Below are positions 29,444-56,449 of a DNA stretch of 58,809 nucleotides, piece after piece. The position numbers and the translations under genes were made by a program. The stretch comes from Nemertoderma westbladi (Eukaryota; Animalia; Xenacoelomorpha). The DNA lies in NCBI GenBank assembly GCA_032718475.1, contig JAUCBJ010005410.1:1-58809 (forward strand). The letters run 5' to 3'. The stretch's first letter is position 1. Each line of letters begins with the position of its first letter. The notes below the pieces were generated by a model. That model was not told the DNA's origin. It did no database searches and saw only the letters and a program-made list of their open reading frames with translations.

Positions 29444-31610
29444 ATGGAAAGGAATTCTAAGATAACTGACAGTTGGTTCCCAGAATACATTGAAAAGAAA
29501 GCCGACACTTCCATGTCTGAGAGCAGAATGTCAGACAAAACTCAATCGCAAGAGGAAACAATCGTCGAGACGCCATTCAAAGACTGGGGGTTACCCAGCA
29601 ACCAGTGGTTACCAGACGACCTGGGGGTTCCGTCAAGAGACCCGAATTTATTCGATACCAATTTCAAACGGAACGCGTCCGAGGGTTTTGGTTTCTACGC
29701 CGGCGATTCTAAACAAACGTTGCTAGAAACCGATGAACGCCATGGGATACGAGAAATTACGTCGTTGCAAGCGCGAACCGCAGCGCCTACGAAATGGCCC
29801 GATTCTCGAATTTATGAAAACTCATTTAATTTGAGTGAGTCTTCGTATAATACTAGTACTAGCAATGGAGTTTCTAGGAGTAATGCGTTTGACTTAAACG
29901 GTGAAAGTTCTGGGGAAATCACATTCATACACAGTAATATTTCATGTGGACGGATAAATGAACCTCATAGAAAAACATTTCGATGCAGGCCTAAGGATAA
30001 ATGGACTCGAGAATTAGATAAATTGGAGAAACATTCTAAAATGCGCGACGCGACGGCATGGAAACCCCAATCGATATCATTAAACGACGACCCTCTTCTA
30101 GAAGACAGCTATGTCAACGTGTTACAAGGAATCATAAAATCCAAAGAAAATTCCCCTCCGACAAGCTACGAATGTAATATGAAACCAGCATGTCTAAAAT
30201 CCAGCTTAACGATGCAGGAAAACACCAGAGTACAATATCAAAATGCGATTGCTAAGCAATATGAGAATGCAGAGTTCCCAATGTTATCAAAAGGTGATAA
30301 TATAAATGTTGATGAGACGAAGGAATTATGTTTTACTGAGGGAAATTATTCTCCTTCAATTGGAAATGTGTTAGAATACCGTGGTTTTGAATCGATTTCA
30401 AATACTAAAATAGGTGGCCAACTCTCGCAGGGGATTACGAAGGAACGCTGCGACATAAGGGCCGACTCCCGATTGTGTAATGCGAAACTTAGCAGTCCTG
30501 CCTGTGATTACATAAATAGTGCAAGAGGCGACATCGTCGAAAATTCTAGTGAATCAAAACCTCACGACTGCAAGGGAAACTTTCTTTCAAACGATGACAC
30601 ATGCAATTGCATGAGGTTTAACATTTTACAAAGTATGGAGGATATAAAATGCGCCATTTCCGAAGACTTGAGTGGAACAAATTCAGACATTTGTAAAAGT
30701 ATTAGTGGTGGAAAGGCTGACGTTTGTAAAAGCTTGAGTTGTGAAACAGTAGATATCTGTAGCAGGCTTACGAGGGATGATACTAAATGTAAAGTGGAAT
30801 TTGTCAAGGGTGTCGGCAAATCAAATTCTAACACTGATAATTGTCAACAATTGGCTGATGCAAAAGGTGATAATAACGATATTGAAAGTGCATCAAAAGT
30901 TGATTTTTCTTTAGACCAATATTCTGTTGGTAGTTTGTTGGATGCTGCTATAAAGATTATTGCAGCCACGAATAAACCTCCGGTTGTTGAGAATGCATTT
31001 ATGGTGACACAAAATGTGAATCATGATTCAAAAAAAGAGGATGATGTTGTCACACGTGAACAATATCAAACAACCACTTTAACCAATTTACCGTGTCAAT
31101 CAAATGACCTTCCGCCTAACCATACAGAAAACGAACCCACAGACGTGTGTGAGAAAAAGTCAGACAAAGATATTGAGAGTCACTGTCAGAACGAGAACAG
31201 CATAAACGGCGATAGTTTTAGAAATATAAACTTTTTAATGGAAGAATTGATACCATCTGACGACATATATAAACTAAGTCCTCATTCTGTAAGCACAAAT
31301 GATATCTTTAAATATTCTAATAAAAGCGGCAATATTCATAACATTGGCGACGATATATGTGAACACTATTTGTTCGATAACTGTGATAATGTTTGTTATT
31401 GCGAGGGCCATTCAGTACCTGTGTGCAACGGTTCTTATTCCATAAATCACGGAAAAAAGTATCCTAAAATATGTTCCGAATTGGAATTCGGCTGTTATCA
31501 CCATGATTGCCCTTATGAAGATGAATTATTGGGTAGAAACTCAAATGATTACCACGAGCATTGCTCCTGCCCATACACATACCCAAATCATAATTCCTTT
31601 TCTCATTTTG
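29444..31610 (+). CDS. Large coding exon of an uncharacterised protein (Ser/Asp-rich, Cys/His-rich towards the C-terminus)
   Basis: 750-codon ATG ORF; composition turns intron-like after TTT G|gttcgt (31610/31611, phase 1). No family recognised. Confidence 0.75.
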
Positions 31611-32001: not shown

Positions 32002-32192
32002 CTTCCAGGAAAAGGAAACACGTCACTTATCATAAAAGTTGGCAAGACGAATTTTACAACAGTGGAAACTCAACAACGGATAGTTCGATAAGCTCCCGAC
32101 ATGAGAGTCCCACCTCGGAAAGTTTCGATGGGTGCCGAAGCAAGGCATCGAGTTGTGGGTGTGAGTGTTTCTATCGGGATATGCGACTGTGA
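32002..32192 (+). CDS. Predicted last coding exon of the 29444 gene (ASRKRKHVTY...YRDMRL*)
   Basis: Acceptor ttttattccag|CT is phase 1, compatible with the 31610 donor; open for 62 codons to TGA; contains NLS-like RKRK. Confidence 0.55.
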
Positions 32193-34906: not shown

Positions 34907-35147
34907 ATGCAATTAACGATAGACTCGGCAAGCGCTTTAGTTATAACCAAATCTGCCTTCCTCAATATCTGTCTGGAAAACGGGACATTTATTAAAACCT
35001 TCTTGGAGGACTATCTGGAAACGAACGCAAGTTTCTTGGACGAATACGTTGCTAGAAAATGTACTGCTGGGCAGATAACCAAGTGGTTACAGAATCTCTT
35101 GGGGACCGGGGAGATGGGCAGCGTCGCTAATAGTGTTCCCAATATAA
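34907..35147 (+). CDS. Multi-isoform putative transcription regulator, constant exon 1 (80-aa helical N-terminal domain)
   Basis: ATG ORF MQLTIDS...PNI with consensus donor A|gtaagt at 35147/35148, phase 1, matching the acceptor at 36170. Confidence 0.6.
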
Positions 35148-35653
35148 GTAAGTTTCTCTCCCAGTATTCCCCCCCCCCCCCCCCCCCCCACCCGACTGCG
35201 GTTAGGGTAGGGTAGGTAGACTAGGCCTATGTTTATTGTAGAGGCTGATGCTGATATGCCTAGCGTATTTTCTAATTTTAAGTTTTGTTTACCGGTAGGC
35301 CTACTAATAAATTTTACCGTAATATTCACTTACTATAAAACTGTAAAAGGGCGATAATGTAAAACTTTTTATCCGATTATCCATTTAGTATCGAATTGAC
35401 AGTCGTTTATTTTATGCAAAATGCATAGACTATATGGGGAGATAACAATACAGTGGGCAGGGAGGGGCACATGCTTTCAATGGTTTAATCATCAAGAATT
35501 TATTTTTTTGGCTATCAACTTCAAATTTAATAATCTAGCACTTGATAAGATTGCAGTGCGATTTTTAATTTTAATATTCTTCATTTTCGAATAAATAAAC
35601 CGTTGTTTAATGTTTATACCGGTACATTACTGCATTATTTCTTCCCGGATCAG

Positions 35654-35699
35654 ACAATAACACGTCCTTCACGTAAACGAAGACGAAAACGTAAACGAA
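35654..35699 (+). CDS. Possible optional 46-nt exon encoding an NLS-like peptide TITRPSRKRRRKRKR
   Basis: cag| acceptor and |gtaagc donor; ends in phase 1; needs a phase-0 upstream donor (35190 or 35196). Confidence 0.4.
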
Positions 35700-36169
35700 G
35701 TAAGCAAGCTCAGCATATACAGCCATACGGGTAATGTTATTTCAACCGATGCCTAGTTGCCCTCTAGCGGGAGACAAGAGAACTGCTGATAGTGCTCCCC
35801 ACAATTTATATTTCAGACTTTTGAGTTTTAACATAGACAAAATGTCTACCAACACTAAGTTTGTTATTCTAAGATTGACTTTAGATATTAGCCTTCAAAC
35901 ATTATGCGACAGACAGACAGACCGTCCGACAGAACAGACAGACAATGGCAGATACAGCGGTACCGGTACGTACCTGTATGCTAAGCACGCTTACTTGGTC
36001 GCATATCGAACACTTTTGCGTGTGGTCTAGTATAGTCGTATGTCTTCGGATGAATTTACTCCCCAACTCAGTAGAGGTGCTGCAGAGATATAATTACCGG
36101 TAATTATGTATTTATCTGATTAATTATAAATATTTCCGTTGATTATTAACACTTATTACTTTTCCTTAG

Positions 36170-36329
36170 ACATGCCCCCCTCCTCCCATTATCCCCCCAG
36201 CCACCATCCCCCACCAACGTACAACCAATCCAACCGACCAGCCACCGTATCCACCCCCTTTCGCTACCGACACAACCCGATCGGACTATCACGCCTCACT
36301 ACCTCCAGTCGTGGCTTCCCCAGATCGAG
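36170..36329 (+). CDS. Constant exon 2 (Pro/Ser-rich)
   Basis: ttttccttag|AC acceptor (phase 1), GAG|gtaatt donor (phase 2), open frame. Confidence 0.7.
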
Positions 36330-36930
36330 GTAATTTATTTAGTTGGACACTACTACGGCAAAATTCTGCCGTAATTTTATTACTTTTTTTCTGGCATAAT
36401 TTATGGACTTCCATAAATTAGTCATACTCTGATTGGTTTGTAGATGGTCTCATAGTCAGCTTATTTTCCAGTTGACCACCTATGCTGTACAGGTACATCA
36501 GATGATACTCAACAAACTGCAATACTGTACTACCTACCTGTACTTACTGCTACGGTCCTGTAACAAAAAGGTTTCAATTTTAACTATCAACCAATCAAAC
36601 TGATTTCGTAATGGCAGAATTCTGTCACATTAGACAGGTCTTTATTTTTTATACTGTCATAGATTTGGATTTGGTTTTACTTAATATAACTTTAGAATTA
36701 GATCATATTATAAAAAATGAAAATTTTTTTAAACATTATTTGAACTGTTAACCCCACCCCCCCCCCGTATCTCCCACCGCTCTACAAATTTAGTTGATAA
36801 TAAATTATGGAGCCCATCTTTCTAATCAACGAGCTACGGATTCGTTTAGTTTGTTAATTCGTACCTGTACCTATCCGATCTCGGTTGATCATTCTATTTT
36901 TACTCATTTATATAATATTTACTTCGACAG

Positions 36931-37550
36931 GTATTTCAACCGCAGGGTGGCTCCGACACCCAAACCATTCCCGGAACCCATTGTCTCCGCCCCTTTCCAC
37001 CCCCTCCGACCCGAGCTTCCGCCCACGCGGACGGACAGAACGATGTCCGACAATCTCTCACATTCGGTATTCATCCCAAACAACCCCCCTCCCCTCAACC
37101 CACAGACCCCGCTGTACCCCCAATCTACCACGCAGCTCCCACAGACCTCCAATTACAACCTGGTACCGGTGCCGATACAAATCAACACCTCGCAACCGCC
37201 GCTCGTCTCCACCGCCCAGACAGAAGTCATTCAACACTCCCCCCCAAAGTGTTCACCCCAGTCAGCAGTCACCGTAACTAATTCTATTCCTAAAACCCAA
37301 CCCACTATAGACTCAGTCGCAGTTAAAACTGAAACTAACGATATGGACTTTAGTTTATCCTGTATGAACAACGACAGTCACACTGGCCAATCAGATTCAC
37401 TGTCTGCGTTAGAGTTTGTTGCCATGGCTGCGTCTAGTTCCCAGCTGTTCGGGTCCGACCCCCCAGGGGCGGAGGACGCAGCGTACGACGGCACCCCCAA
37501 TGTGTGCAATCCTATGATAACGTCTGTGCCGTCCGGGCCAGGTGAACCAG
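36931..37550 (+). CDS. Constant exon 3 (Pro/Gln/Ser/Thr-rich, contains VKTE SUMO-consensus)
   Basis: gacag|G acceptor (phase 2), CCAG|gtgagt donor (phase 1); lies within the 254-aa ORF. Confidence 0.75.
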
Positions 37551-37564
37551 GTGAGTAAGGGATG

Positions 37565-40035
37565 TGTGGCGTAGTTTGAGGTGTAGTCTGTTTGTGGCGT
37601 AGTCTGTTTGTGGCGTAGTCTGTTTGTGGCGTAGTCTGTGTGTGGCGTAGTCTGTTTGTGGCGTAGTCCGTTTGTGGCGTAGTCTGTTTGTGGCGTAGGC
37701 CTGGTCTGTGTGTGGTGTAGTCTGTTTGTGGCGTAGTCTGTTTGTGGCGTAGTCTGTTTGTTGCGTAGTCTGTTTGTGGCGTAGTCTGTGTGTGGCGTAG
37801 TCTGTTTGTGGCGTAGTCCGTTTGTGGCGTAGTCTGTTTGTGGCGTAGGCCTGGTCTGTGTGTGGTGTAGTCTGTTTGTGGCGTAGTCTGTTTGTGGCGT
37901 AGTCTGTTTGTTGCGTAGTCTGTTTGTGGCGTAGTCTGTGTGTAGCGTAGAATGTTTGTAGCGTAGGCCTAGTCTGTGTGTGGCGTAGTCTGTTTGTGGC
38001 GTAGTCTGTTTGTGGCGTAGTCTGTTTGTGGCATAATCTGTTTGTGGCGTATGCCTAGTCTGTGTGTGGCGTAGGCCTAGTCTGTGTGTGGCGTAGGCCT
38101 AGTCTGTGCGTGGCGTAGGCCTAGTCTGTGTGTGGCGTAGGCCTAGTCTGTGTGTGGCGTAGTCTGTTTGTGGCGTAGTCTGTTTGTGGCGTAGTCTGTG
38201 TGTATCGTAGTCTTTTGTGGCGTAGTGTGTGTGGCGTAGTCTGTTTGTGGCGTAGTCTGTTTGTGGCGTAGTCTGTGTGTAGCGTAGGCCTAGTCTGTGT
38301 GTGGAGTAGGCCTAGTCTGTGTGTGGCGTAGGCCTTGTCTGTGTGTGGCGTAGTCTGTTTGTGGCGTAGTATGTGTGTGTCGTAGTCTTTTGTGGCGTAG
38401 TGTGTTTGGCGTAGTCTGTTTTTGGCGTCGTCTGTTTGTGGCGTAGTCTGTTTGTGGCGTAGTCTGTGTGTGGCGTAGTCTGTGTGTGGCGTAGTCGGTT
38501 GTGGCGTAGTCTGTGTGTGGTGTGGTCTGTTTGTGGTGTAGTCTGTTTATGGCGTAGGCGTAGTCTGTGTGTGGAGTAGTCTGTTTGTTGCGTAGTCTGT
38601 TTGTGGCGTAGTCTGTTTGTGGCGTAGGCCTAGTCTGTGTGTGGCGTAGGCCTAGTCTGTGTGTGGCGTAGGCCTTGTCTGTGTGTGGCGTAATCTGTTT
38701 GTGGCGTAGTATGTGTGTGTCGTAGTCTTTTGTGGCGTAGTGTGTTTGGCGTAGTCTGTTGTTGGCGTCGTCTGTTTGTGGCGTAGTCTGTGTGTGGCGT
38801 AGTCTGTGTGTGGCGTAGTCGGTTGTGGCGTAGTCTGTGTGTGGTGTGGTCTGTTTGTGGCGTAGTCTGTTTATGGCGTAGGCCTAGTCTACTAGTACTA
38901 GGATCGGCATGCTGCATTGCAGCTGCATTTTTAAGAATGCTGTGCCGGCTTGTCAACATAATTGCACCGCCACAACTCCCTATCACCCATGACATTTGCT
39001 AGATCATCCACATCTTTAAGGCCAGTGTCCTTTAAGATGCGTCTCAAGAAAGTCATGGGCTGTCCACCATGCTTATTCACTCCATGAGGCTGCCAAAGTA
39101 CAAGATTATGCACTGGCTGGTCCTCACGGCGAAAGCAATGTCCTGCAAAGCGGAGGCGATTTTGTTCTAGTGTCAAGCTTGGGGGAACCAATGAGACACC
39201 TCCAATGTTATATAGTGTCTGGTTGGAGATGTGTGCATTGTACTTGACACAATGAACCTGGCGTAGCATTCTTGTGAATGTGCCATCCAGAGATTTGGTG
39301 TCCTCAGCAGTTAGAGCCCAGCATGGACTCCCGTAGAGGAGTACTGGAACTACTGCTGCTCTAAATAAGCGGACTTTAAGTTTCCGATTAATTCTCGGTG
39401 ACTTCCAAATCCTGGAAAGCCTATTCAAGGCTGCCCATGCCTTTCCCTTACGTATTCGAAGGTCCTCACCTGACTTCCGGATCCATGATCCCAGGTAACA
39501 GAAGTCGTCCACATGCTCAAGCATACCATCCTTTGAGCTTAGGCCTAGTCAGTATGTGGCGTAGTCTGTTTGTGACGTAGTCTGTTTGTGGCGTAGTCTG
39601 TGTGTGGCGTGGTCTGTTTGTGGCGTAGTCTGTGTGTGGCGTAGTCGGTTGTGGCGTAGTCTGTGTGTGGTGTGGTCTGTTTGTGGTGTAGTCTGTTTGT
39701 GGCGTAGGCCTAGTCTGTTTGTGGCCTAATCTGTTTGTGGCCTAGTCTGTTTGTGGCGTAGTCTGTGTGTGGCGCGGTCTGTTTGTGGCGTAGTCTGTGT
39801 TTGGCCTAATCTGTTTGTGGCGTAGTCTGTTTGTGGCCTAGTCTGTTTGTGGCCTAATCTGTTTGTGGCGTAGTCTGTTTGTGGCCTAGTCTGTTTGTGG
39901 CGTAGTCTGTGTGTGGCGCGGTCTGTTTGTGGCGTAGTCTGTGTTTGGCGTAGTCTATTTGTGGCGTAGGCCTAGTCTGTTTGTGGCCTAGTCTGTTTGT
40001 GGCGTAATCTGTTTGTGGCGTAGTCTGTTTGTGAC
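37565..40035. repeat. Intronic 16-bp minisatellite (gtctgtttgtggcgta)n interrupted by a LINE fragment
   Basis: Direct tandem repetition with occasional taggccta-containing variants. Confidence 0.95.
38890..39539 (-). mobile_element. 5'-truncated non-LTR retrotransposon (RTE-like ORF2 C-terminus)
   Basis: VDDFCYLGS, RKGKAWAALNRLSRIW, LFRAAVVPVLLYGSPCW and RLRFAGH are typical RT thumb/C-terminal LINE motifs; flanked by taggcctagtc at 38879-38889 and 39540-39550. Confidence 0.85.
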
Positions 40036-40719
40036 GTGTTTTGCGTTGTATAGTCGGGTGTTTCCTTCTGTCTGACGTTGATTCCACATATCTGATGTAT
40101 CTCCTGGTATCTTTGGTTGCAAAAATATTGCTATTCCAAAAATCTTTAGCTTTTTTTACTTAATCTTGTTCTAATCCTATTTTATTGCCGGCATGTCCGA
40201 GTTTAATAAATATCGCCTTTCATAGCAGGTTAAACTCAAAATTTTGAAATCCAATTATAGAAATGTTGGCCTACTACATTACCGGTACTAATAAATAGAG
40301 AGCTATTAGTATTACCTTTTACCTATTACCTTTTTATAATCATGTTTGTTTGAGCCTAGTTCAGTTTCATAATTTAATATGCGTAGCAAATGGTGTAATA
40401 ACATTTTAAGTTCTGCGCTAGGTCTGTAATATATGACCTTCATTTAGTGTAGATAAGATAATATTGAATATAAGTCATTGATTGCTATTTTAATGTAGGC
40501 TTCAAACGTTCAACCAAAGAGCTAATAATACAATAAAAAAATATTATAATTTGGTGAATATTTTACTGGCACTGGCTTACCTCCTGATGAAATGTGTCCG
40601 TCCACCACCGCATTGGGCGCACCTGTCAATCACTACGTCATCACCTACCCAAATTAATTAAATTTACTTTATTAGCTTTTTGGCTTGTTTTTTATTGGCT
40701 CTTTGGTTGTCTGTTTCAG

Positions 40720-40916
40720 GATCCTATTTGGTCCGTCGTCGGTCGGTTTCTATAACAACGCCGGACGGCAGCAGGTTTCCTTGTCCGAGACAGCTGTGTT
40801 TCGGACAACTTAAATTTACGACCCGGAAAAATGTAGATGGGATTCACTACGAAACATTGCGCTGCCATAGATGTGGCACATATAGGTGGGTTCTGGATTT
40901 ATTTTTCGTATTCTAG
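40720..40916 (+). CDS. Alternative terminal exon V1: Cys4 zinc-ribbon-like (CPRQLC...CHRC)
   Basis: ctgtttcag|GA acceptor is phase 1, matching the exon 3 donor; open to TAG. Confidence 0.55.
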
Positions 40917-41835
40917 AACGGGTATGTTTGTCAATGTGTTTGAAGTAGGCCTATTTGTGGTAGCGCAGTTCTAGAGTGGTGCCGCAGTGTTCTAGAACGG
41001 AAGTGTTTTGTCTGCCGTACGATTTGATTTGGTTTTTGTTGTGTTATATTATTTGTGTTCAGTATTTTACAACTTTTGAAGGATTTAGGATTAATTAACG
41101 TTTCACTTTTTCTTAGTGGATACCGGTACACATTGTATAACAGTTGTTTACCCTTTGGGGGGATTCCGCTTGTCCGCCGTCAGTATTAATTTTGTAGCCG
41201 TAAAATTTTACGAAATTTCGGATGGATTTTGTGGAAACTGTCACGTAAAACATTGTTAAACACTGAATGAAGTTCACACTCTCTTTGGCAATTTAAGTAA
41301 CTTCGATTCGATGGTGAGGGTGAGGCTTCAACATTTTATAATGTTGATTATTTTCAAAATGATAACAAAATAGGAAACTATTTTCCTGTCCTCATCCTTC
41401 TCATTTCAATCGATTGTCCCAAAAAAAATAATCAGCGATAAATCCGCATAACGAATTAATTGAAATAAAAAAGAAATCATAACTGTTATGATGTTGTAAT
41501 TGTTGTAAAAATACCTGCCAAATGGATTATGGAGATAGTTTTCACTTTCAGACATTTAGCCCTCTAGCAGCAGACTGGGGACCTCCAGAGTGCAGACGGC
41601 TCTCTGCAGGCTGCAGTAGTAGATACCTCACAAATGTCAGCTCAAGAGGATAATGAACAAATGGGCTGACCAATATTGGAACTCATTATGTCCGCTGATT
41701 TTGTATTTTTTTGTACGTTTTCTGTCCGTTGATATTTTAGGTTCCATGCTACCGGCATCTCTACTGCTGTTCTCTTAGGCATCAGTATCAGTACCGGTAT
41801 CAGTATAGAGCAGTTTATTAAAACCGATAAAATCG

Positions 41836-42056
41836 CCCATGTGAAGAATACCAGGATTTCACTTTTCGGTCGACTTTTTATTGGAATTTTATATATGAAG
41901 ATTTTTTATTTTTTTTAATTTATCTTTATTAAGTGTTTTATAGCGCTTATTTCTGTATTATAACCTGTACATATACTAATTCGTTTATTGTTTTGGTTAG
42001 ATTCGGCCCTTCTGTAACCTGTGGTTTTGGTGAAAACCTGGTATTCTTCACATGGG
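41836..42056. mobile_element. MITE with ~20-bp TIR CCCATGTGAAGAATACCAGG, followed by tandem TIR-containing 63-bp units to ~42250
   Basis: Perfect inverted ends; further copies at 44636-44845 (tandem units to ~45020), 46900-47048 and ~49138-49260. Confidence 0.6.
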
Positions 42057-43811
42057 GGTAACTGCAAAGTGAAATATAACGGCAGAAAGTCTGATATTCT
42101 TCACATGGGCCGTATATTGTACTGGGGGGTAACTGCAAAGTGAAATATAACGGCAGAAAGTCTGGTATTCTTCACATGGGCCGTATATTGTACTGGGGGG
42201 TAACTGCAAAGTGAAATATAACGGCATAAAGTCTGGTATTCTTCGCCCATGTAAAGAATACCAGGATTTCACTTTTCGGTCGATTTTTTATTGGTCGATA
42301 TTTTTTATTAAATTTATCTTTATTACTGTAAGTGTTTTATGCGCATGCGCGATATCCGTTATTTTTTGAGGGGGATGATCTATTGATCAGTCGGTCGGAC
42401 GGTTAGTAAGAAGGTGACGGGTGTAACTGTGTAAACAAGCCGCCGCGGTAACATATTCTCCTTTCCCTCAATTGGTAGGTGTTTTTTTAGTGTTTTTTTT
42501 GTGTTTTTTTAGTGTTTTTTAACGAAATTGCACCCTCCGTATAGCGGCCATTCTTCACATTAGTCGTACCGGTATTTTTATTTTCTATAAAGCTTCACTG
42601 ATAAAACAAAACTGCGGTTTTGAAAATAAATTAACGGTGTTTGCAATTTTAACCGCCAGTTGTTGGGAATTAAAACTAGAGTTTTTTTTAAAAACCATAT
42701 AGTTTCATTATCGCCATCTTGCACCAGGATCCGTTGCACAAGGATTCGAAATATGTAACAATGTTTGAATTTAATTGAGAAACATCTATAATATATACCT
42801 TTCTTTCTAGACCCTCATTTAGGGCCCTTCAAATATTATACAATTGATTGGTTGTATATATAAACTAAAAATTCACTGTATAATGTGGCGGCTTTTATAG
42901 CAATTTAATTAAGATGTTATTGTAAGCCAGCAGTATATCAGTGAAATTTACGTAAAACTATAATAATGATGCTAAATTTTATACTAAGGCTAGATTAGTT
43001 ATAATAATTAGACTTTTCGTAAGTTTGTAGATCTCGTAAAAAAGTGATCTGGGCAAGTCTTACTGTTAAATATATCTGCACCATTTCCAATTTTATACAT
43101 AATGATAATATATATATATATTTTATATCACACGTTGCCCATTTTGCACAAATTTGGACTTGGTCTGGTCAAGTTATAAATGATTTAAAAATAAATAAAT
43201 TATATACTATGAAATTACACGGCATAGGGACTGTAATGCAGTTGGGCCTTCTTGAATTTTCAGCAGCCACAGTGCTGTAGTACCCGTACTAATTCGGTAC
43301 CTTACAGTGTCTAGTAGTTTAGCTCTTCTAATGGAAGTAATTAGTAATGTGACTGGCATTATTATCCCTGTAAAATTATAATTTATTCGTTCAGTGATAG
43401 GTGAACCTGTCAAACACGTAACACATGAGACAACCCAAAAGTCTCCACACTCTCTTGGCAGTTACCTATAAGGCAGGGAGGGCGCCACACTAACTCCCAA
43501 GTTTTAACACTCCATAACGACCCAACTCTTTATGCACTCGCCCAGCAGAACCCATGTTCCTATTGTATCGCTGGGTTTTACTGTACACTTGAGTGTCTGG
43601 CATATAAAAATGTGTTGGCAAGGTGTGTTTTCCGAGGTGTTTTTTTCGAGGTGTCTAGAGGTTAAGACCCCTAGATCCCTTCCTATAAATTGTCTATAAA
43701 GGGACACAACAGTGCGAAATTTTGAATAGAGTTGGTTCGTAGATAGTATGTAGGCCTAAATATCTCATCCAGAACCTTTTTGAGTAATTTGAGTAATTTT
43801 CTCAATTTTAG

Positions 43812-43959
43812 ATCAACAAAGACCGTCGGGGAGTGGAGGTTTGCCTCGGAATGATGACGCCTCTAGCGGCTCCGGGTTGAATCAATCATTCGATTCATTC
43901 GGTGTACCCGGTAGTTCCGCTGGTGACTTTAACCTCGCGTCCGACGGAGACACTCAGGG
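43812..43959 (+). CDS. Constant exon 4 (Gly/Ser/Asp-rich linker; shared donor for downstream variable exons)
   Basis: attttag|AT acceptor (phase 1), open frame DQQRPSGSGGLP...DGDTQG, donor GG|gtgagt (phase 2); too short for the ORF track. Confidence 0.7.
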
Positions 43960-44635
43960 GTGAGTCTATATACCGGTCCGTAGGGCAGCACTCTTGGAGT
44001 TCACTTGGCCAAAACCGAAAGCTGCAATCCCCTATGACATAATTCTTACGCATTTGTACTAGTTTTTAAAGCACCGTTCACACAGTATCGAAGCTAGCTA
44101 GCTTCAATATGTCAGCGTGAAGCAAGCATCACTTCGTTACCATTATTCATTCACGCTTCCTTCTTATGCCAGCTGGAAGCTAACTTAACACCGTTCGGAC
44201 TGCTTTCCAAAGCTAGCTTGAAATACTGATACCCCGCTCACAGGTTCGCAGCAAACTTCGCCCGCGTCCAATCTTCGCCCGGAGCAATCTTCGCCCTCAA
44301 AATGAGCAACTATCGCCCGGCGGATACCTCCGCCCGCAGGCAACCTTCGCCCAATAAACAATTATTGTTTTGGTTAGAAAAAGCCGCTTCTGTAACGTGC
44401 TCCTTTCTCTCAATTAGTAACAACATCTTTTATTGTTTTGGTTAGAAAAAGCCGTCTATGTTACCTGCTCCTTTCTCTCAATTAGTAACAACATCGTTTA
44501 TTGTTTTGGTTAGAAAAAGCCGTCTATGCAACCTGCTCCTTTCCCTCAGTTGGTAACTAAAATGGTTACTAACACAAATCTTATTGGGCGAAGGTTGCTC
44601 GCTGGTGAAGATTGCCTTCCGGGGGAAGGTTTTCA

Positions 44636-45020
44636 CCCATGTGAAGAATACCAGGATTTCACTTTTCGGTCGACTTTTTATATATGAATTATGCATTTTA
44701 TATATGAAGACTTTTTTTTAAGTGTTTTATAGCGCTTATTTCTGTCTTATAACCTGTACATATACTAATTCGTTTATTGTTTTGGTTAGATTCAGCCCTT
44801 CTGTAACCTGTATTTTTGGCGAAAACCTGATATTCTTCACATGGGGGTAACTGCAAAGTCAAATATAACGGCAGAAATTCTGGTATTCTTCACATGGGGG
44901 TAACTGCAAAGTGAAATATAACGGCAGAAATTCTGGTATTCTTCACATGGGGGGGGGGGGGGGGGGGGTAACTGCAAAGTGAAATATAACGGCAGAAATT
45001 CTGGTATTCTTCACATGGGC
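44636..45020. mobile_element. Second copy of the CCCATGTGAAGAATACCAGG MITE plus tandem units
   Basis: Near-identical to 41836-42250. Confidence 0.6.
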
Positions 45021-46654
45021 CAAGGTTTCCCCCGTGCGAAGGTAAGGTAGGAAGCGGGCGAAGGTTGGACGCGGGCAAAGACGCGCAAAGACGCGGGCAC
45101 CCAACCAATCCGAACTAGTTTGCGCCACGGCGCGCCTTTGTGAACAACAACGACTGTATTGTATAACTTGTATATTGTGTTCTGGGCCACTCAGAGAAGA
45201 CTCGTTACGTGTCCAGATGATCTATTGACGCAAATCTCCATCTCGGCAAGTTAATAGATTGTATCGGTAAATTAACAATGTTAAGGTAAAGGGGCAGGTT
45301 GCAGTGACATGTTGTTCTAACTAAAATAATAAACAAAGAGTCAAAAGCACAGGTATAATTTTGATTGCATTCAGCTGTTAATTGCGTCGATTTTTTAAAC
45401 AGCTTATCGTAATTATTACTTTTAGTACTTATTTCGAGCTTTCAACCTATTTAAGTACAATTATTCAGCCAGTAATCAATGTCGCTATAGGTAAAAATAA
45501 TCAAGTATTATTCTAACCAAAACAATAAACGAGACTCTATAGCACATGTTACAGATTAATTGTATACTAGTAATCATAGCAATTGTAACTAAGGATCTAT
45601 TGTGGCAGGACATTATGTCACAGAACCTACCGACCATAGGACCTATGACGCATTACCTGACATAATTACAGACATAATTAGCTATGGTCATAATGATGTC
45701 CTGCGTGTTTTGATGTCGGTAGAGTAGCACCCCCCACCCCCCCCCCCCCCCCCCCCCCCCAATATAGTTTTCTGACTTCGTAACAGATAGCCGTTGGCTT
45801 GGGTTATGTATCATTTTAAAGCAGCCATTATGTTTATCCATTAGAACTACAAAATATTTCGATAAGTGCGGCGGCGCAGTGACATAACGATGCAGTACTT
45901 CTGATACAGGACATAGTGCCATTTAGACATAATAACTGGGGGGGGGGGGGGGGGGGGGGGGGGGTGGGGGGGGGGGGATGAGTGTGAGCTGAAAAGTCTA
46001 AAACATATTTTATATATATTTCATAAACAGTATATTTTTGCCCAATGAACACCAGATTGGAGAGTCCTTTGGACGCAATCAAATGCATTCCCCTCCAGGA
46101 GAAAATCTACGTAAATAACAGCTGCTTACTCTGAAAATAAAACTGTAACCTGTTCTATTGAATATAGTTTATTGTTTTGATTAGAATAGCATGCGACTAT
46201 GTAAACTGCTCATTTCCCTTCATTGATAATTTAACATTGGGGCGAGATATTATTCACCGCGTAAGAATTTGCATCAACCCCCCCCCCCCCCCCACACACT
46301 GGAATTATCAATCAACTAACCACCGGCTCTGGCCGGAGCTCATATTGTAACCCGAGGAACCTCCGGGCTCCGGCTCCGGATGAAATTTTAGCTCTGTCGC
46401 ATCCCTAGTACCGGGGTAATAAAATATGTGAAACAATAGAAAGTAATTTGGTGAAACTAATTTGATAACACTGTGAAGTGCTATGAGAATATATTTCTAA
46501 CATTATTTGCACAAACACATCCTTAGAAATAGTCTGTAATGTATTCCCCATATCTGTTGTGTTTACAAAATTGATATTATAATTGAATGTTGGACTGTTA
46601 TAGAAAATTCAAAAAATAATGTAAACAGTGTAATAATGTACTGTAATAATTTAC

Positions 46655-48215
46655 ATCAACAGCACCAACAACCCACAGCACCAACAACCCTACAACCCAC
46701 ATCACCTACAGCCCTACAACCCACAGCAACTAAAACCCGCAGCACCTACAACCCACAGTACCTACAACCCACATTAACTACAACCCACAGCACCTACAAC
46801 CCGCAGCACCTACAACCCACAGCACCTACAACCCACAGTACCTACAACCCACATTAACTACAACCCATATTAACTACAACCCACAGCACCCACAGCACCT
46901 GCAGAAATTCTGGTATTCTTCACATGGGGGTAACTGCAAAGTGAAATATAACGGCAGAAATTCTGATATTCTTCACATGGGCCAAGGTTTCCCCCGTGCG
47001 AAGGTAAGGTAGGAAGCGGGCGAAGGTTGGACGCGGGCAAAGACGCGCAACCACAACACCTACAACCCACAGTACCTACAACCCACAGTACCTACAACCC
47101 ACATTAACTACAACCCACATTGACTACAACCCACAGCACCTACAATCCGTAGCACCTACAACCCGCAGCACCTACAACCCACAGCACCTACAACCCACAG
47201 TACCTACAACCCACATTAACTACAACCCACAGAACCTACAACCCGCAGCACCTACAACCCACAGCACCTACAACCCACAGTACCTACAACCCACAGTACC
47301 TACAACCCACAGTACCTACAACCCACAGTACCTACAACCCACATTAACTACAACCCACATTGACTACAACCCACAGCACCTACAGCCCTACAACCCACAT
47401 TAACCTCAACCCACAGCACGTACAAGCTACAACCCACATTGACTACAACCCACAGTACCTACAACCCACAGTACCTACAACCCACAGCACCTACAACCCA
47501 CAGTACCTACAACCCACATTAACTACAACCCACATTGACTACAACGCACAGCACCTACAGCCCTACAACCCACATTAACCTCAACCCACAGCACGTACAA
47601 GCTATAACCCACATTGACTACAACCCACAGCACCTACAATCCACAGTAACTCAACACACAACACATACAACCCACATTAACTGCAACCCACAGCACCTAT
47701 AACCCACAGCACCTTCAACCCACATTAACATCAACCTACATTAACTTCAACCCACATTAACTATAACCCACAGCACCTCCAACAACCCACAGCACCTCCA
47801 ACAACCCACAGCACCTCCAACAACCCACAGCACCTCCAACAACCTATAGCACCTCCAACAACCCACAGCACCTGCTACAACCCACATTTAACTACAATTC
47901 AAAACACCTACAACCCACATTATCTACAACCAACAGCACCTACAACCCACAGCACCCATTATAGCCCACAGCACATACAACCCACATTAACTACAACTCA
48001 CAACACCTACAACCCACACCACCTACATTAACTACAACCCACAGCACCTACATCCCACAGCACCTACAACAACCCACAGCACTTACAACCCATAGCACCT
48101 ACATTCCACAGCACCTACATCCCACAGCACCTACAACATACCACAGCACCTACAACATACCACAGCACCTACAACATACCACAGCACCTACAACCCACAT
48201 TAACTACAAACCAAC
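46655..48215. repeat. 16-bp minisatellite (cacagcacctacaacc / cacattaactacaacc)n
   Basis: Tandem repetition; interrupted at ~46900-47048 by a MITE-derived piece; inverted unit remnants at ~48231-48256. Confidence 0.92.
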
Positions 48216-49264
48216 AACGTAACCGATTAGAGGTTGTGGGTGTTCCGTGCTGTGGGTCTTAGAGTTCCACACGTTACACCCCACTTCATAATAGCTTCGC
48301 CATAGCTAACCCGCCATCTCTGTAATAGCCATCGTGTTCTTAATATTATATTTTATGCAAAAATTCGAGGAATTCGCTAGCCTGCCATTTATTTATTTAT
48401 TATCAACTGAACCGAAATGCAATAACCCGTTACTCAACTTAGGTTTGGCCTGCAAGCCATTTGATTGACTGCAGTTTGATATATTGCTTGTTCGTTCTCC
48501 TAGAAAGATCTTGCCTGAGACAAGACTTGATTGGGCCTGTAAGTTAATGAACCTTAAATACCACATGTTGTTAGTAGCTAAGTAACATTAGACCAACCAA
48601 CCTGCATTCTATTGCCTCCATATAACATACCAAAGGCTGACTGCTGATTCAACTATTTAGATTTTGTATGTGATTAGAGACTATCCTTGCAATGCTGTCA
48701 CACTGAGGTGGTCTGTCAAGATTTCACACAAGAATGTTGTGCCTAGGTAGGCCGCATATTGTATATATGGTAACAACTGTCAGTCCAGTTTAGTGAGATT
48801 CCTGGAAGACCACCAACGGCTACAGTTGAATGCAGACCTACTACTCTGTCTGCTGCAATACATCTCAAGGCTGCAAGACCAACCATATCCCTAATAATTA
48901 TTGCCTGGCACATAACAGATATATTTTATACGGTTTGAATGTGAATGATGTCTGTTATGAATTAGTATTAGGTTTGTTATTAAATTTATATACAACATGG
49001 TGCAATATCGATTATTAAATTCGTTAACAACCTGTCAAATGCTTAGGAGGAGTATCCTACCACATTCTAATTCATTTAAGAGTCATAACCAATTCATCGT
49101 AATATTTATAGTAATTAATATGAAGACCGCCAATGCAATGTGAAGAATATCATGTTTTCACTAAAAACCCAGGTTTCAGAAGGGCTGAATCTAACCAAAA
49201 CAATAAACGAATTTGAATTAGTATGTGTACAGTATAAGAAAAATATACGCTTTAAATCACTTAA

Positions 49265-49558
49265 CTAGAGAGCCAGCAAGCTGGCTATAAGAAGACCCCC
49301 AGGCCCTCAACAAGTAAGCCCTAACGGTCTTCTAATTAAATGTAATTTGATGATCTCGAGAACCGACATAGAATTTTTTTTTATGTGATTGTACAGTTTG
49401 GTAAACTGCATCCAACGATATAATATCACATTCCATATTTCGGATGACAGGTACCGGTGAAATCAGACTTTACCAAAAAAAATTTCAAGCCAATATCAAT
49501 GTGCACAATCATACAGACAAACAGCAATAAGCTCTAAGGGTCTTCTAATTAATATAGA
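49265..49558 (-). mobile_element. Possible short non-autonomous Helitron-like element
   Basis: Minus strand begins TCTATATTAATT and ends with hairpin AGCCAGC-TT-GCTGGCT then CTAG; only one flank fits the A|T target. Confidence 0.35.
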
Positions 49559-49938
49559 GAAATTAAGAAATTGTCCGTCAATGCTTCAATATAGTTTCTA
49601 GCCCGCTTGTCTTTGAGTCATGACGTATTCTACGATATGGGGCGAGCAGCGTCATTACGTAGCCACCACATACCGATCCGAAATGAGCCGGCCAATATTG
49701 GCTTTTCTGCTGCACCTTGTGTAAAAAATGTCTATATTAATTTTGTTATTGTGTGAAAGTTGGGATTTAGAAAGTTTATGTATTTGTTTATAATTATTTG
49801 AGTAATTGCTCGAGTTATTATTTTGTATTAGTATTATTTATTGATTGTTCGTGCTTATATAATACCAGCGGTGATAATTGGTAAATAACAAGTCAGAGAT
49901 GAGTCCGACGCTAACTCGAGTCTGTGTGTCTTCTACAG

Positions 49939-50200
49939 ACATGGGGTCTACCAGCAGGAATCGGTGAGGCCTGTCACCTTGAAACGACGATTCCAGAAGA
50001 TTTATCGTCCGGAGGAGTACGAGAGAATACTAGCTGCTCAACGCCGCTACCAACGCAAATACAGACTAAAATGCAAGTTCGCTAAGGCGCTCAACTTAGA
50101 TGTCAACCAATTAGATTCCGAGTACCTAACTCAGTTAGATACTGATATACTAAGCCAGTTTGACTCAACTGGGAATTCCTCGAATCTGGATTCGGAATAA
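49939..50200 (+). CDS. Alternative terminal exon V2: basic helix (YERILAAQRRYQRKYRLK)
   Basis: ttctacag|A acceptor is phase 2, matching the exon 4 donor; 87 codons to TAA; AATAAA at 50269. Confidence 0.65.
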
Positions 50201-51082
50201 TTTGATGTGTCTTTTTTTTTACCGAACTATGCATTTTTACTAAAGAAAACCAATTTGTATAAATTCGCAATAAAATCCCATACATCAAAAAAGGTAAATT
50301 TATAGTAATTTTGTTGGGCATTCTTAGGTAGATGGACTCCTTTCCTATAAAATTCTGAAACTGTTTTTAACTCCTTATATATTTGTAACGTTTGTCCATT
50401 ATTGGAACATAACGAGCATATTATAATGTTGAATTTAAATAAGCAATTAATGTTTTCGGATTTTAAATAAAATGTTCGCGGATTTTAAATAATATGCTCT
50501 GTTCATTGAGTTATTTGATTCCAAACTGAGGCCGAATTTGTATTCATTCCATGTATTATTATACTTTTGTTAGAAACAACAGTTTAATTTGTAAATTTAA
50601 TTGCAATAGTGCTGTATTTGGGATATTTTTGAATTTTAAGAGTCACTTGAGAGAAGATATATTAAGTACAACTGTACTAGTTTTAGGTAATGTTTTCTTC
50701 CAATTAATTCAATCGTTGAGACAGGGGGGGGGGGGGGGGGGGGACTGGACGGAAATCCCATCTTGGCTAATTAATATCCCGCCTCAATGTTAAATTCTCA
50801 ATTTAGGGAAAGGAGCAGGTTACAGTGGCACATTATTTTAATCAAAACAATAAACTAAACACAATAGAACAGGCTACTGTTTTATTTTTGAGAGTAATCA
50901 GCTGTTATTTGCGTCCAATTTCCCCTGGAGAGGGATGAATTGTTATTGCGTCCAGTTTTCCCCCCTATCTGTAACTAAACTTTATAGTTTGAGGTCTATT
51001 CTATTCCGTAATGTATATATTTACGCTTCAGGTTTTAATTATAGTGTTTCATAATGTTTCATAATTTAATATATACAGCTAA

Positions 51083-51629
51083 CCCTTTCCGTACCAACAC
51101 ATAAAAAAAGGCGGCACACTGCTGCCTTTTTTATTCTAAATAATTCTGGACCATGTTCATTAAGGCGGCCCAGTGCGTCGCCTTTAGCTTTTTATAACTT
51201 AACACCCAGGACGGCAGGGTGCCGCCTTTTTTTAAAAATCCGTTAAGTTCATAGTCGTGTTGGGCGGGAAAACTTGTCTAGATTAATTTAATATTGCTTG
51301 AAAGAAATCCTATTGGTTTGAGGTTTACTGTAAATTACATAATTCATGAAATCACATGATATTTAATTTCAATTTAGCCAATAATAATGTTACAAATGAT
51401 TAAGGCGGCAGTGTGCCGCCCATGGGGTTCAAAGGTGAAAGAAAATTTTGAAAATGGTTAAAGGCGGCAGTGTGCCGACTTTGGGGGGTAGGATAAGTAA
51501 TAATATAGTTAACCTCTTTATATAACAATCTCTGGTACTAGAATAAAATATACCTTGCTCCGATCAAGTATATTATTCTTAGTCCGTGGGAGGAAAAATT
51601 TATGTAATTTATGTTCGGTACGCAAAGGG
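51083..51629. mobile_element. piggyBac-like MITE
   Basis: TIR ccctttccgtacc / ggtacgcaaaggg with TTAA-like flanks (ctaa / ttta); internal inverted aaggcggca...tgccgcc motifs. Confidence 0.55.
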
Positions 51630-52229
51630 TTTAATGCTATTGCATAATACAATTAATACTGTTAAATATACATAATGTTATTAAATATACGGTTGATGCT
51701 ATTAAATATATATCTAATGATTTCAAATATATATGTAAAATGCTAATAAATATACAATAATTAAAATAAATCAAATATTCATTTAGGTAATATTTACCGG
51801 ACCACAAAACCAATAATTTTTTGTATTTGATAAAAAACAATTTTATTCGAAAATGAAAATATAGATATTACATAGGTATATAACGATGTACAGTATGTAG
51901 AACTTTATACGCCGGGTAACTTTTTACGGTCGCGATGCAGTAGCTACAATCAACTACAATAATTACAGAGTATTGGAATTTAGTGTTAATTTGACATTTT
52001 GTTATAAAAATAAATATTTCCATTTGGGAATTTAATTATATACTCTTAAGTCATATTCTAGCACATTATAAGCTTATAGTTCTCATCTCTTTTCAAACCC
52101 TTTCTAGTCTTGAAGTAAATAGTTATTACATTTAGTTTAATAGTTTACCGTTCGAGTGAGTTTACCAAGCTGAGTGACAGTAATAAATGAGATCAGGGGT
52201 GTAATATTTGCAAGTGCAATATTGATTGA

Positions 52230-52850
52230 CGATAGGTTTTTGGGAGTTTTGTAGATTGACGAGCAGTTTTAGGGAGTTTTGTAGATTGACGAGCAGTTTT
52301 AGGGAGTTTTGAGGTTTGATGAGCAGTTTTAGGGAGTTGTGAGGTTTGATGAGCAGTTTTAGGTAGTTTTGAGGTTTGATGAGCAGTTTTAGGGAGTTTT
52401 GAGGTTTGATGAGAAGTTTTAGGGAGTTTTGAGGTTTGATGAGCAGTTTTAGGGAGTTTTGAGGTTTGATGAGCAGTTTTAGGGAGTTTTGAGGTTTGAT
52501 GAGCAGTTTTAGGGAGTTTTGAGGTTTGATGAGCAGTCTTAGGGAGTTTTGAGGTTTGATGAGCAGTCTTAGGGAGTTTTGTAGATTGACGAGCAGTTTT
52601 AGGGAGTTGTGAGGTTTGATGAACAGTTTTAGGTAGTTTTGAGGTTTGATGAGCAGTTTTAGGGAGTTTTGAGGTTTGATGAGCAGTTTTAGGGAGTTTT
52701 GAGGTTTGATGAGCAGTTTTAGGGAGTTTTGGGGTTTGATGAGCAGTTTTAGGGAGTTTTGAGGTTTGATGAGCAGTCTTAGGGAGTTTTGAGGTTTGAT
52801 GAGCAGTTTTAGGGAGTTTTGAGGTTTGATGAGCAGTTTTAGGGAGTTTT
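52230..52850. repeat. 30-bp minisatellite gagcagttttagggagttttgaggtttgat
   Basis: About 20 tandem copies; accounts for the repetitive 221-aa minus-strand ORF. Confidence 0.95.
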
Positions 52851-53327
52851 ACAAGCAATTAATTTTTGTTTAGGACTCTGCCCCTGTGGTAGCTTTTCCC
52901 AAATATTATGTGGTGTTGTTTCTGCAGTATGATTCTCGGTTTCCCTATAGTATGCCGGGGGCTGGTTTGAAGTTTTAGTATTTGGTTGTCTCTTTCTACC
53001 GATACAGACAATACATCAATCGCCCGCCCTAAGGGATACCACCCACCCCCCGTATAAAATCGCTAGTAGTAGTATCAAATAATGGTTAATTCATTACATT
53101 AGCATGTCATTAGTCGTTGAACCGCAATTCAGATATTATTTTGTCCTCTTGTATTCAGTTTATATTCAAATGTAATTGGGTGAATTTTGGCCATATGGAA
53201 GTTGAAACTAGATAAAAAAAATGTGTTTCTTTCCAATTACTTTTCTTTAAAATTTATTTCATTTTTTACAATCTCTGGCGATTAGTTTGCACACCAAATT
53301 TTGGTTCAACCATTTTTTGTATTGTAG

Positions 53328-53574
53328 GTTTCCATTGGGTGTGTCGCATGCGAACGTTTCAGACTTTGATAATATTTCCTATGTTTATATGGATCGGGAA
53401 TCTAAAAGAGCTTATACCAAGAGATTGAAGAATCACCTCCGTTGGAAGCAAATGCAAACTGAAGAATCGATGAAATACGAACAGAGATTATTGAGAATGC
53501 GAGAGTATAGTCGGCAAAGACGCGCCCAAGAAAGGAGAGAACGTTCAAACCAGATGCCATCTAATGATTCTTAA
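53328..53574 (+). CDS. Alternative terminal exon V3: basic helix (YEQRLLRMREYSRQRRAQE; STPR/bZIP-basic-like)
   Basis: ttttttgtattgtag|G acceptor, phase 2; open to TAA. Confidence 0.65.
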
Positions 53575-54832
53575 ACATAAACTAACACCGTCGGTCTTTC
53601 TTAAACAGAAACATATATACAGGACGCGCCGGTCATTCTGAAAGATGATACCCCATCTCATTTTTAAAGAAAAACTTCAGATATCTTAAAGAAAGAAGAA
53701 CTGTTACACAGTTTCCATTCAACACTTGGGCGCGATTTTTTATAAACAAATACTGAACTAGGTCGCAGATTATAATTGCTTACATAGTTTCAGATACTCT
53801 CATTAATTTGTATTAGAAGTATCAAGTTAAAAAATGCGGGAAGTCAGCGCACACCCCATGTGAAATATATCTTACGTGCAAATGTTAGCTGGATCATGAC
53901 TTTTGAGAATTGACTCTTGTTTATTGTTTTGATAACAATAGCTCGCACGTGTAACCTGCTTAATTCCCTTAAATTATAACCCTGGAGCATGGCATGTTTA
54001 ACGGTGCGGTATGGCACTGAATATCTCCTGTATCACTAGATAAATTAACTACATGGTCTATTCACACCTAGCATTGGAATTGGTTGGCGATTGATTTTAA
54101 TATCATTTCAAGGTAAAATTTTTAATCAAAATCACATATTGTGGTCTTAACAAATTAAAAACAGCTTCGTAATTTCAATTGTGGCGCGTACTCACAATTT
54201 GTGTTTTTATTAAAAACATTTTTTTAATTTATTTTTCAATTCCATTTATCAGTTCAAATTTTGTTCACAAATACCAGGCTACTCATAAATATAATATTAT
54301 ATAATTTAGTATCAATATTCCGTTGTCATTGTATTCACATTATTGAATGTTTGATTAAATGTATTACATGTAAATTGACACATTAATATAATGATATTAT
54401 TTGCTTATCAATATATTTTGTTAATTAATTGGGTCGTGGGGACGCACGGTCGGTCGCCATAACTACGGTACCAGAAACGAAACTAAACCTACTTCCCCCT
54501 CAATTTCTCGACTGGTTTTGAAGCATTTCTCTAAATTTTCTTAATGTTTTTCCACTTCGAGTTTCAAACCCTGACTGTAAGATAAGTGAGAAAACCTGGA
54601 ATTGATTTATTTATAATTGTAATTTATTTATTTTTAACATTTAGAACATTGAACTGGAAGCCGAATACTGTATTGAAAACTGACTACTATACTAGTGTAT
54701 TACAATTACAACTCTTGTTATATTTTTATTGTATATTATCGCCGGGGACATCCATATCCTTGAGAAGAAATATTACAAAATAACGCCAATTCCACAGCTC
54801 CAAGCTCTGCTATACGTAATATTCTCCCTTAG

Positions 54833-55106
54833 GATGAGGTATGGGAAAACACGCCTGCATGATTGGACGAGACAGAAGTCGTACAGCGGAACCCCCTTGC
54901 CATGCGGAGTATGCGAGAAAGCCTTCAACCACACCTCCAGTCTGTATCGCCACCGTAAAACTCACAAACTAGACACCTGCGTGGTCTGTCATCTCTGTTC
55001 TAAAACATTCGTTACCTTAGAGAATTTAGACCGCCACATTCGACATGTTCACAACTGCGATGACAATAATTTCGATAACTCTTCGCATAACTTATTGCTA
55101 AACTAA
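54833..55106 (+). CDS. Alternative terminal exon V4: two C2H2 zinc fingers
   Basis: attctcccttag|G acceptor, phase 2; CGVCEKAFNHTSSLYRHRKTH and CHLCSKTFVTLENLDRHIRHVH. Confidence 0.8.
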
Positions 55107-56142
55107 AAACTCACTCTATCTTATCTACGTAGATTTTAATGCTCAACTCATATTTTGACCAGATTGAGGGGACTAATGGATGCAATCAAATTTATACTAT
55201 CTCCAATTGTAATATCGCCGCAAATAACAGCTGATTACCAGCAAAATGATATAAACTGTAACTATATTGACTTTAGTTTATTGTTTTGGTTAGAATAACG
55301 TACCACTGAAACCTGCCCCTTTGATAATTAACAATACTAATTCGCCGAGATGGGATTTGCGTCCATTTACCCCCTGTCTCATATTGCATATTAAACAAGC
55401 TCCATTTACTCTCGGTAGTTTATTGCTTAACTGAGACTACGATTATAACAAATTTTTCACACTTTTGGTGCGATTTTCTGTTATGAATAGAAAATCTCAT
55501 TGTTATAAATATCTGCAAAAATATCTACTTTCTTTAAAGATAAGATTTTCCGATCACAAAACAATCTGTAACTGAAATGTACACCAGTTTTTCTATTCAT
55601 AATAATTTATGTTCGTTTTCCCACCTCTAAATCCCACAAATGTCATTATTATTTTGCATTATTCATATAATAAACAAATGAATAGGTCTCTGAGGGTCTT
55701 ATCCTCGGCAACATTATATTTGTTGCCTAGTAGTATGTATTTTGTTGTATATTATATATTGTGATAATTTAATTATGCACGGTTTCATTAATGGATTAAA
55801 TGCTGGAATCCGAATTTCAATATTTTTGACAAATAAATACGGAGAAAAAAATACAAAGCATCCGAATATACATATTATACATATAAAATAAATTAATTTG
55901 GTAAATTTTTCCAAAATAAACGAACTGACCTAGTCTTAGGATAGTTGACTTTCATCCGAAAGGTCTGTAATAATAAAATAAATTGCAACTTAGAGAAAAT
56001 GTGGTCACATACTCTGCCGCGTATCAAGATAACAAACTAACAAAAGACCCGTAAACTCCAAAACATAAAGAGTTTTAATTGAAATTCTAGTTGTCTCCAT
56101 GGTAACCTGCGTTGTTTTTTCACGGCGTAATTTTATGTTTAG

Positions 56143-56449
56143 GTTTTCGCGGCTGACCTCTCTGATGAACAAACCCACAGCCGTGCTGCGGCGTATGACG
56201 GCCCAAAAACCCAAGACGAGATTATCGTTAGAACGCAAGATCGAGGTCATCCTTCGCATACAGAACGGAGAGGACAGAGAGGCGATAATACGCGAGTACT
56301 GTATATCGCGGAGGTGTTTCTATTATATTTTACAAAATAAGCGTCATTACCTAAATATGTATGTGAATATGAGGATGTTACCGAGTGGAGACAACAGCTC
56401 AACAGAGGAGAGATATCAACCAGAACCAATGAATCTATCAATCCTCTAA
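56143..56449 (+). CDS. Alternative terminal exon V5: psq/CENP-B N-terminal-type HTH plus PMNLS motif
   Basis: ttttatgtttag|G acceptor, phase 2; RLSLERKIEVILRIQNGEDREAIIREYCISRRCFYYILQNK fits the HTH_psq pattern; C-terminal PMNLS resembles the CtBP-binding PxDLS. Confidence 0.75.

Follow-up and report, generated by a model that had tools for sequence, protein, structure and literature searches.

A candidate lola-like gene with alternative terminal exons on a non-BTB scaffold in Nemertoderma westbladi

Drosophila lola joins a constant N-terminal region to alternative 3' exons, and 17 of its 20 isoforms differ in their C-terminal C2H2 fingers (excerpt of PMC11426971). In mod(mdg4), common exons are likewise combined with many alternative 3' exons that give distinct C-terminal domains; these form five independently promoted clusters and are joined by obligatory trans-splicing (excerpt of PMC13490949), and at least 30 isoforms, mostly of the FLYWCH type, have been described (excerpt of PMC11426971). 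The same portion of the latter paper reports the TTK-type BTB as absent from annelids and molluscs. Here we describe a locus of the xenacoelomorph Nemertoderma westbladi, at positions 34907 to 56449 of contig JAUCBJ010005410.1 (assembly GCA_032718475.1; the whole stretch of 58,809 nucleotides that was analysed is called the window below), which is probably a lola-like transcription-factor gene whose alternative last exons, four or perhaps five of them, are attached to a non-BTB scaffold. A BTB-less cassette of alternative endings was not found in the open-access literature that we searched.

At the DNA level, the locus resembles lola and mod(mdg4) in that constant exons are followed by several 3' exons in one splice phase. 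The candidate endings are named V0 (starting at 40720), V1 (49939), V2 (53328), V3 (54833) and V4 (56143), and V3, with its two fingers, is an ending of the lola kind, which carries one or two C2H2 fingers. The differences from lola are the missing BTB domain, the four to five endings as against 20, and their unrelated kinds (C2H2, helix-turn-helix (HTH), STPR-like, basic helix and Cys4). Unlike mod(mdg4), the locus lacks a BTB domain, and a large set of mostly FLYWCH isoforms, promoted clusters and trans-splicing are neither shown nor needed. A preliminary description of this DNA had claimed a lola-like layout, which the DNA supports; its further terms "mutually exclusive" and "DNA-binding" are properties that we infer.

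All introns of the candidate gene are of the GT-AG type, in a window of animal-type DNA, and the four constant exons on the forward strand (34907..35147, 36170..36329, 36931..37550 and 43812..43959) join in frame without a stop in phases 1, 2 and 1, as the preliminary description had proposed and as we could re-derive. Exon 1, the candidate first coding exon, comprises 80 codons with a phase-1 GTAAGT donor, belongs to no known family and has a coding score of only 0.08 per codon. The Pro/Ser/His-rich exon 2 is entered in phase 1 and left in phase 2, and exon 3, which is Pro/Ser/Thr-rich and then acidic, is entered in phase 2 and left in phase 1 through a CAG/GTGAGT donor; at residue 265 it carries a tetrapeptide that we take to be a SUMO consensus. 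Exon 4 encodes a Gly/Ser/Asp linker and is left in phase 2 via a GTGAGT donor common to V1-V4; since a stop lies right behind this donor in the same frame, exon 4 has no other exit. Residues 81-389 of the constant part, Pro/Ser/Thr-rich and acidic thereafter, would be expected to form a disordered effector region of about 310 residues.

Pfam matched neither a BTB nor a ZAD (zf-AD) domain in the constant exons, and the same holds for 73 frames between 26850 and 37550 (one added frame and 72 out of 91 listed, after exclusion of 19 off-frame or minus-strand open reading frames (ORFs) inside known exons). Moreover, the FxLRWN motif of BTB domains does not occur in the translation of the constant exons and endings, and exon 1 has two cysteines as against the four of a ZAD. 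The absence of a BTB domain noted in the preliminary description is thereby upheld, and because of it the predicted gene is not a member of the lola/mod(mdg4) group.

The segments V1 (49939..50200), V2 (53328..53574), V3 (54833..55106) and V4 (56143..56449), all on the forward strand, each start in phase 2 behind a YAG acceptor and stay open for 86, 81, 90 and 101 codons up to stops at 50200, 53574, 55106 and 56449, in line with the four phase-2 segments of 80-100 codons first described. The earlier assignment of 40720 to the phase-1 donor of exon 3 also holds: V0 (40720..40916, forward strand) has a strong acceptor and carries on this frame for 64 codons, to 40916; yet it shows no Pfam match and a coding score in the range of introns. 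The predicted products with V1, V2, V3, V4 and V0 comprise 476, 471, 480, 491 and 405 amino acids, respectively, and none of the tested exon combinations contains an internal stop in the joined frame. No donor matching eight of nine consensus positions lies within any of the segments, which are accordingly read as terminal, and poly(A) hexamers occur downstream of each, in V1 as an AATAAA 69 nucleotides past the stop. V1 also has a second phase-2 acceptor at 49897. An in-frame Met is lacking in V0 and V1, which therefore cannot be single-exon genes; it is the first residue of V3 and internal in V2 and V4.

Given random and independent phases, the agreement of the four best acceptors of V1-V4 with the phase of the donor would have a chance of 1 in 81, a figure from our own arithmetic that has to be read in the knowledge that the segments were chosen partly by phase. 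In all five segments the phase-matched YAG is the most pyrimidine-rich YAG near the segment start. When 43960-58809 was compared with 200 local Markov shuffles, a strict pyrimidine cut-off gave three phase-2 acceptors with at least 80 open codons (shuffle mean 0.75, P about 0.045) and none in phases 0 and 1 or on the minus strand; a looser cut-off gave four (shuffle mean 1.2, P about 0.03), with two each in phases 0 and 1. The codon score, trained on two other genes in the window, amounted to 0.25 per codon in V1, 0.16 in V2, 0.14 in V3 and 0.17 in V4, as compared with a mean of -0.27 (standard deviation 0.19, maximum 0.18) in 88 intronic open stretches that served as control. It flips from negative to positive at the acceptors of V2, V3 and V4, and in V0 climbs at the acceptor yet remains just under zero. 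GC content is 0.40-0.46 in V1-V4 and 0.28-0.35 on their flanks. A Pfam scan that was blind to phase covered all 109 ORFs of at least 50 amino acids outside tandem arrays in 37551-58809; two of these reach the curated cut-off, and they are V3 and V4, both phase-2 segments. Modest singly, these tests are persuasive together. Further possible endings at 50574, 54645, 41741, 43462, 55294 and 44514 were dropped, their coding scores being -0.01 to -0.33.

Two of the five variable endings pass Pfam cut-offs for DNA-binding domains, one is STPR-like and two are without a family. V3 contains the two C2H2 fingers that had been recognized before (PF00096, 40.6 bits, cut-off 25.2). The psq-type HTH formerly assigned to V4 has to be replaced, since the segment scores as CENP-B_N (PF04218, 27 bits, cut-off 21.2) and not as HTH_psq; a single CENP-B-type HTH is present. 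None of 30 longer candidates scored as a relative of V4, none was found in metagenome contigs, and the search of the Protein Data Bank (PDB) gave no significant row. The C-terminus of V4 is a pentapeptide that presumably resembles the CtBP motif. V1 and V2 had been described as two basic helices. For V1 this stands, as a basic helix with an acidic tail for which no family was found by Pfam or PDB sequence search; V2, with two basic helical units, is better described as STPR-like.

In the excerpt of PMC4856987 that we use, the STPR domain is defined by 3-7 strict 23-residue repeats, with key positions that include Glu1, Thr/Ser2, Arg9 and the residues in contact with DNA. V2 matches six of eight STPR positions (in register: Glu1, Arg9, Leu10, Met13, Tyr16 and Arg20), and 7 of 2000 shuffles do as well; a second unit, 21 residues earlier, matches four of eight (Glu1, Ser2, Arg9 and Leu10). 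V2 thus shares in-register residues with the STPR of Bombyx FMBP-1 (PDB 5d23), yet has two units that stand 21 residues apart. In the PDB search FMBP-1 was the fourth of six rows (E 2.8, not significant), and Pfam returned no STPR match for V2, which on its predicted sequence is STPR-like and not an STPR member. V1 matches three of eight positions, as many as 1701 of 2000 shuffles. The likeness between V1 and V2 is weak (27 of 1000 shuffles, the best among 15 pairs), too weak for the two to be taken as paralogs, and apart from it the predicted endings are unrelated to one another. V0, which has four Cys and no Pfam or PDB match, looks zinc-ribbon-like when judged by eye and is the weakest and a doubtful member of the set. 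Net charge is positive in all segments (+3 to +8). The endings would bind DNA, and two of them carry curated DNA-binding domains. In an exact look-up of five proteins, none was present in the protein collection.

Residues 1-74 are more hydrophobic, with helices predicted at low confidence for residues 15-25, 30-39, 41-49 and 54-66. Single-sequence models have a mean predicted local distance difference test score of 56, or 70 for residues 26-70 alone, and contain three predicted helices within residues 26-66. No homolog of exon 1 was found among 17 candidates or in metagenome contigs; its best scores in the Atlas, 0.87 and 0.77, are leads only, and against PDB sequences one row at E 0.86 appeared that did not recur in later searches. 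The sole match among 1.84 billion representatives, an ankyrin-repeat protein in which residues 6-27 are matched five times, was rejected as an artefact. Foldseek returned no match for the low-confidence models, and the VIA fold search reached best Z values of 4.1 and 3.8 with no phosphodiesterase among its rows, which excludes nothing. In its hydrophobic and aromatic spacing, the stretch of residues 26-66 recalls what we take to be the pre-GAF helices of PDE5/6/10/11, a likeness to which the tests gave no support. Single-sequence and fold searches returned no phosphodiesterase, single-sequence queries of 35-74 residues having little power, and the window holds no GAF or catalytic phosphodiesterase domain. 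An excerpt of PMC11725853 describes a "pony-tail" motif in PDE6 that is built by both dimer subunits. We treat the likeness of exon 1 to the dimer motif at the N-terminus of phosphodiesterases as a lead and not as a result.

Several of these observations weigh against a cassette gene. The splicing of the endings is inferred from one DNA sequence, and the shuffle test taken by itself is weak (P 0.03-0.045). The coding score partly reflects base composition, other frames scoring equally in V2, V3, V4 and exon 1. V0 combines the lack of a family with a coding score of -0.07, within the intron range, and V1, also without a family, has a frame that scores positive upstream of the 49939 acceptor too. 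The Met at the start of V3 and those inside V2 and V4 would permit a reading of these segments as tiny genes. Poly(A) signals weigh little, since the local density of AATAAA is 2.1 per kb, and for V2 the nearest AATAAA lies 2095 nucleotides off, past V3 (an ATTAAA is found at +580). Finally, exon 1 has neither a homolog nor a confident fold.

The 5' end of the gene is less certain than the preliminary description implied when it placed the first exon at 34907. Exon 1 is without a good acceptor, as would suit a first coding exon that follows a GC/CpG-rich patch (34200-34700), and no U12 donor was found near it; upstream exons also join in frame, so that it may not be the sole first exon. We regard it as unlikely, though the most serious of the alternatives, that 29444..31610 and 32002..32160, both on the forward strand, form the true or an alternative start that is joined either to exon 2 or to a site inside exon 1 (34923 or 34941). 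Such proteins would have about 1170 amino acids (1166-1186 with V1-V4) with exon 1 as an optional part, and this arrangement is compatible with the favoured 3' end. The first of the two is a large coding exon of about 722 codons with no family and a weak phase-1 donor. The second, overlooked in the preliminary description, has a strong phase-1 acceptor, a GTGAGT donor in phase 1 and a coding score of 0.41, as against 0.08 in exon 1. Both donors agree with the acceptor phase of exon 2 and all joins are open, an agreement that has a 1 in 3 chance; with matches at 5 and 6 of 9 consensus positions, the donors are weak. Alternatively, the 32002 exon may close a separate gene at a stop at 32192, with an AATAAA at 32485. 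An upstream ATG at 34879, in a weak context and with an overlap into exon 1, would suit a start elsewhere; the GC/CpG-rich patch with its eight-of-nine donor at 34379, on the contrary, suits a separate start for exon 1. The region 29444-31610 may belong to a gene of its own or serve the cassette gene as an alternative 5' arm. An orphan ORF of 750 amino acids spans 29444-31696 on the forward strand, without a Pfam family and absent from the protein collection. A 38-codon ORF at 34879-34995 (forward strand) runs in a different frame across the beginning of exon 1, with a coding score close to that of the exon; it is an upstream ORF or points to an indel error of the assembly near 34985. The GC/CpG-rich patch, immediately upstream of exon 1 at 34200-34730, consists of GCGCAG-type repeats with inverted halves and may be a promoter region or a small transposon.

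It would also be conceivable, and we consider it improbable, that one segment is the true last exon and that the others are tiny genes, orphaned exons or transposon leftovers that share phase 2 by accident. Such leftovers would be the CENP-B/pogo HTH, the STPR-like helix and the zinc ribbon. Tigger/pogo transposases carry CENP-B_N as their N-terminal domain, and V4 has this domain. Dispersed repeats are abundant in the region, which also holds a LINE-like fragment, and V3 has its Met start and the shuffle test its modest P value. On the other hand, the frame of V4 stops at 56449 after the HTH, and the 109 ORFs yielded neither a further HTH nor a DDE, helicase or other transposase domain, so that V4 shares the N-terminal HTH of Tigger/pogo proteins and not the second HTH and DDE domain; the preliminary description had named transposon fragments as a way to refute the cassette, and no transposase catalytic domain was found beside the endings. 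Every segment is short, intact and flanked by acceptor and stop, a second copy of none of them exists within 26900-58809, and the best acceptor is in phase 2 for four of four. Independent single-exon genes, the other refutation named there, are at odds with V0 and V1, which lack an in-frame Met, and not with V2, V3 and V4, which contain one. A transposase origin of a DNA-binding domain has parallels: KRABINER and 105 other host-transposase fusion genes are known from tetrapods (Cosby et al. 2021, after the summary in an excerpt of PMC8616336). The CENP-B-type HTH of V4 fits the splicing capture of a transposase DNA-binding domain onto a host regulatory domain, and such a capture could explain V4; unlike those fusions, which are single captures onto KRAB, SCAN or SET, several endings stand in series on an unnamed scaffold here.

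That the endings are joined by trans-splicing from promoters of their own, for which mod(mdg4) with trans-splicing only and lola with a mixture of cis- and trans-splicing offer precedents (excerpt of PMC13490949), or through pairing of RNA docking and selector sites, is very unlikely, because all segments lie downstream on the same strand within 12.5 kb of the donor, where cis-splicing suffices, no 9-mer is common to three of the five upstream stretches of 400 nucleotides each, and the energies of pairing to the beginning of intron 4, calculated for 500 nucleotides past the donor and 500 nucleotides ahead of each acceptor, were -23 to -28 kcal/mol, no better than the -18.5 to -32.6 kcal/mol at nine control sites.

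Elsewhere in the window, an intronless FSIP1-family ORF of about 1016 amino acids (Pfam PF15554, 109 bits) lies at 23741-26791 on the minus strand and contains a 33-bp tandem repeat of 16 copies (24602-25139). Its relatives found were four fish proteins and one bivalve protein, in pieces of 269-446 amino acids with 30-39% identity. It stands head-to-head with the genes of the forward strand over a GC-richer patch near 27200, possibly a bidirectional promoter. Satellites cover most of 1-23234, with about 14 kb of a 146-147-bp satellite in a higher-order unit of about 2 kb, after which a 60/121-bp array of 96% identity extends over 8.5 kb. Intron 3 holds a 16-bp satellite, inside which a long interspersed nuclear element (LINE)-like reverse-transcriptase C-terminal fragment is located (38931-39548, minus strand; DUF6451, E 2e-5, under the cut-off). 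The same satellite recurs reversed in intron 4 (46659-48199). Exon 4 and V0 are thereby enclosed by the two arms of a long, imperfect inverted repeat, with a possible influence on splicing. Introns 3 and 4 also contain, in either orientation, short dispersed repeats of two families that resemble miniature inverted-repeat transposable elements, one family at 41833-42291, 44633-45088, 46901-47050 and 49138-49264, the other at 45227-45394, 46051-46293, 50728-50971 and 55158-55374. No Rfam family or tRNA was found.

If the locus is a lola-like gene with alternative last exons, ordinary cis-splicing would connect the exon-4 donor with a single acceptor among those of V1-V4. Transcript cleavage and polyadenylation behind a near exon would remove the farther ones and make the choice mutually exclusive; the decision for V0 would fall one step before, at the donor of exon 3. 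The products, of 405-491 amino acids, would each consist of a short helical N-terminal module, the disordered effector region and an exchangeable end that reads DNA. The N-terminal module would probably self-associate, in the role that BTB has in lola, and a single promoter and effector region could serve several target-site repertoires. A bolder version, which we put forward as a long shot, would see an independently evolved non-arthropod regulator in which a dimerisation module that stems from the N-terminal part of GAF-type phosphodiesterases replaces BTB, the four or five endings exchanged as last exons are unrelated DNA-reading folds (C2H2, CENP-B HTH, STPR-like helices and zinc ribbon), some of them captured from transposons, and isoforms heterodimerise on mixed sites.

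A cassette that lacks BTB and mixes folds would come as a surprise to specialists, though it is a small one and its layout as such has precedents in lola and mod(mdg4). Should RNA confirm it, the principle of one scaffold with many DNA-binding ends would not be bound to arthropod BTB genes, and unrelated folds would be mixable. Gene finders would retain one ending and drop the others in little-studied animals, and gene counts would understate the transcription-factor repertoires of such animals. The locus would moreover be a small and tractable one in which to follow the addition of DNA-binding ends by exon capture in a fixed phase, and in which to ask what the N-terminal module does instead of BTB.

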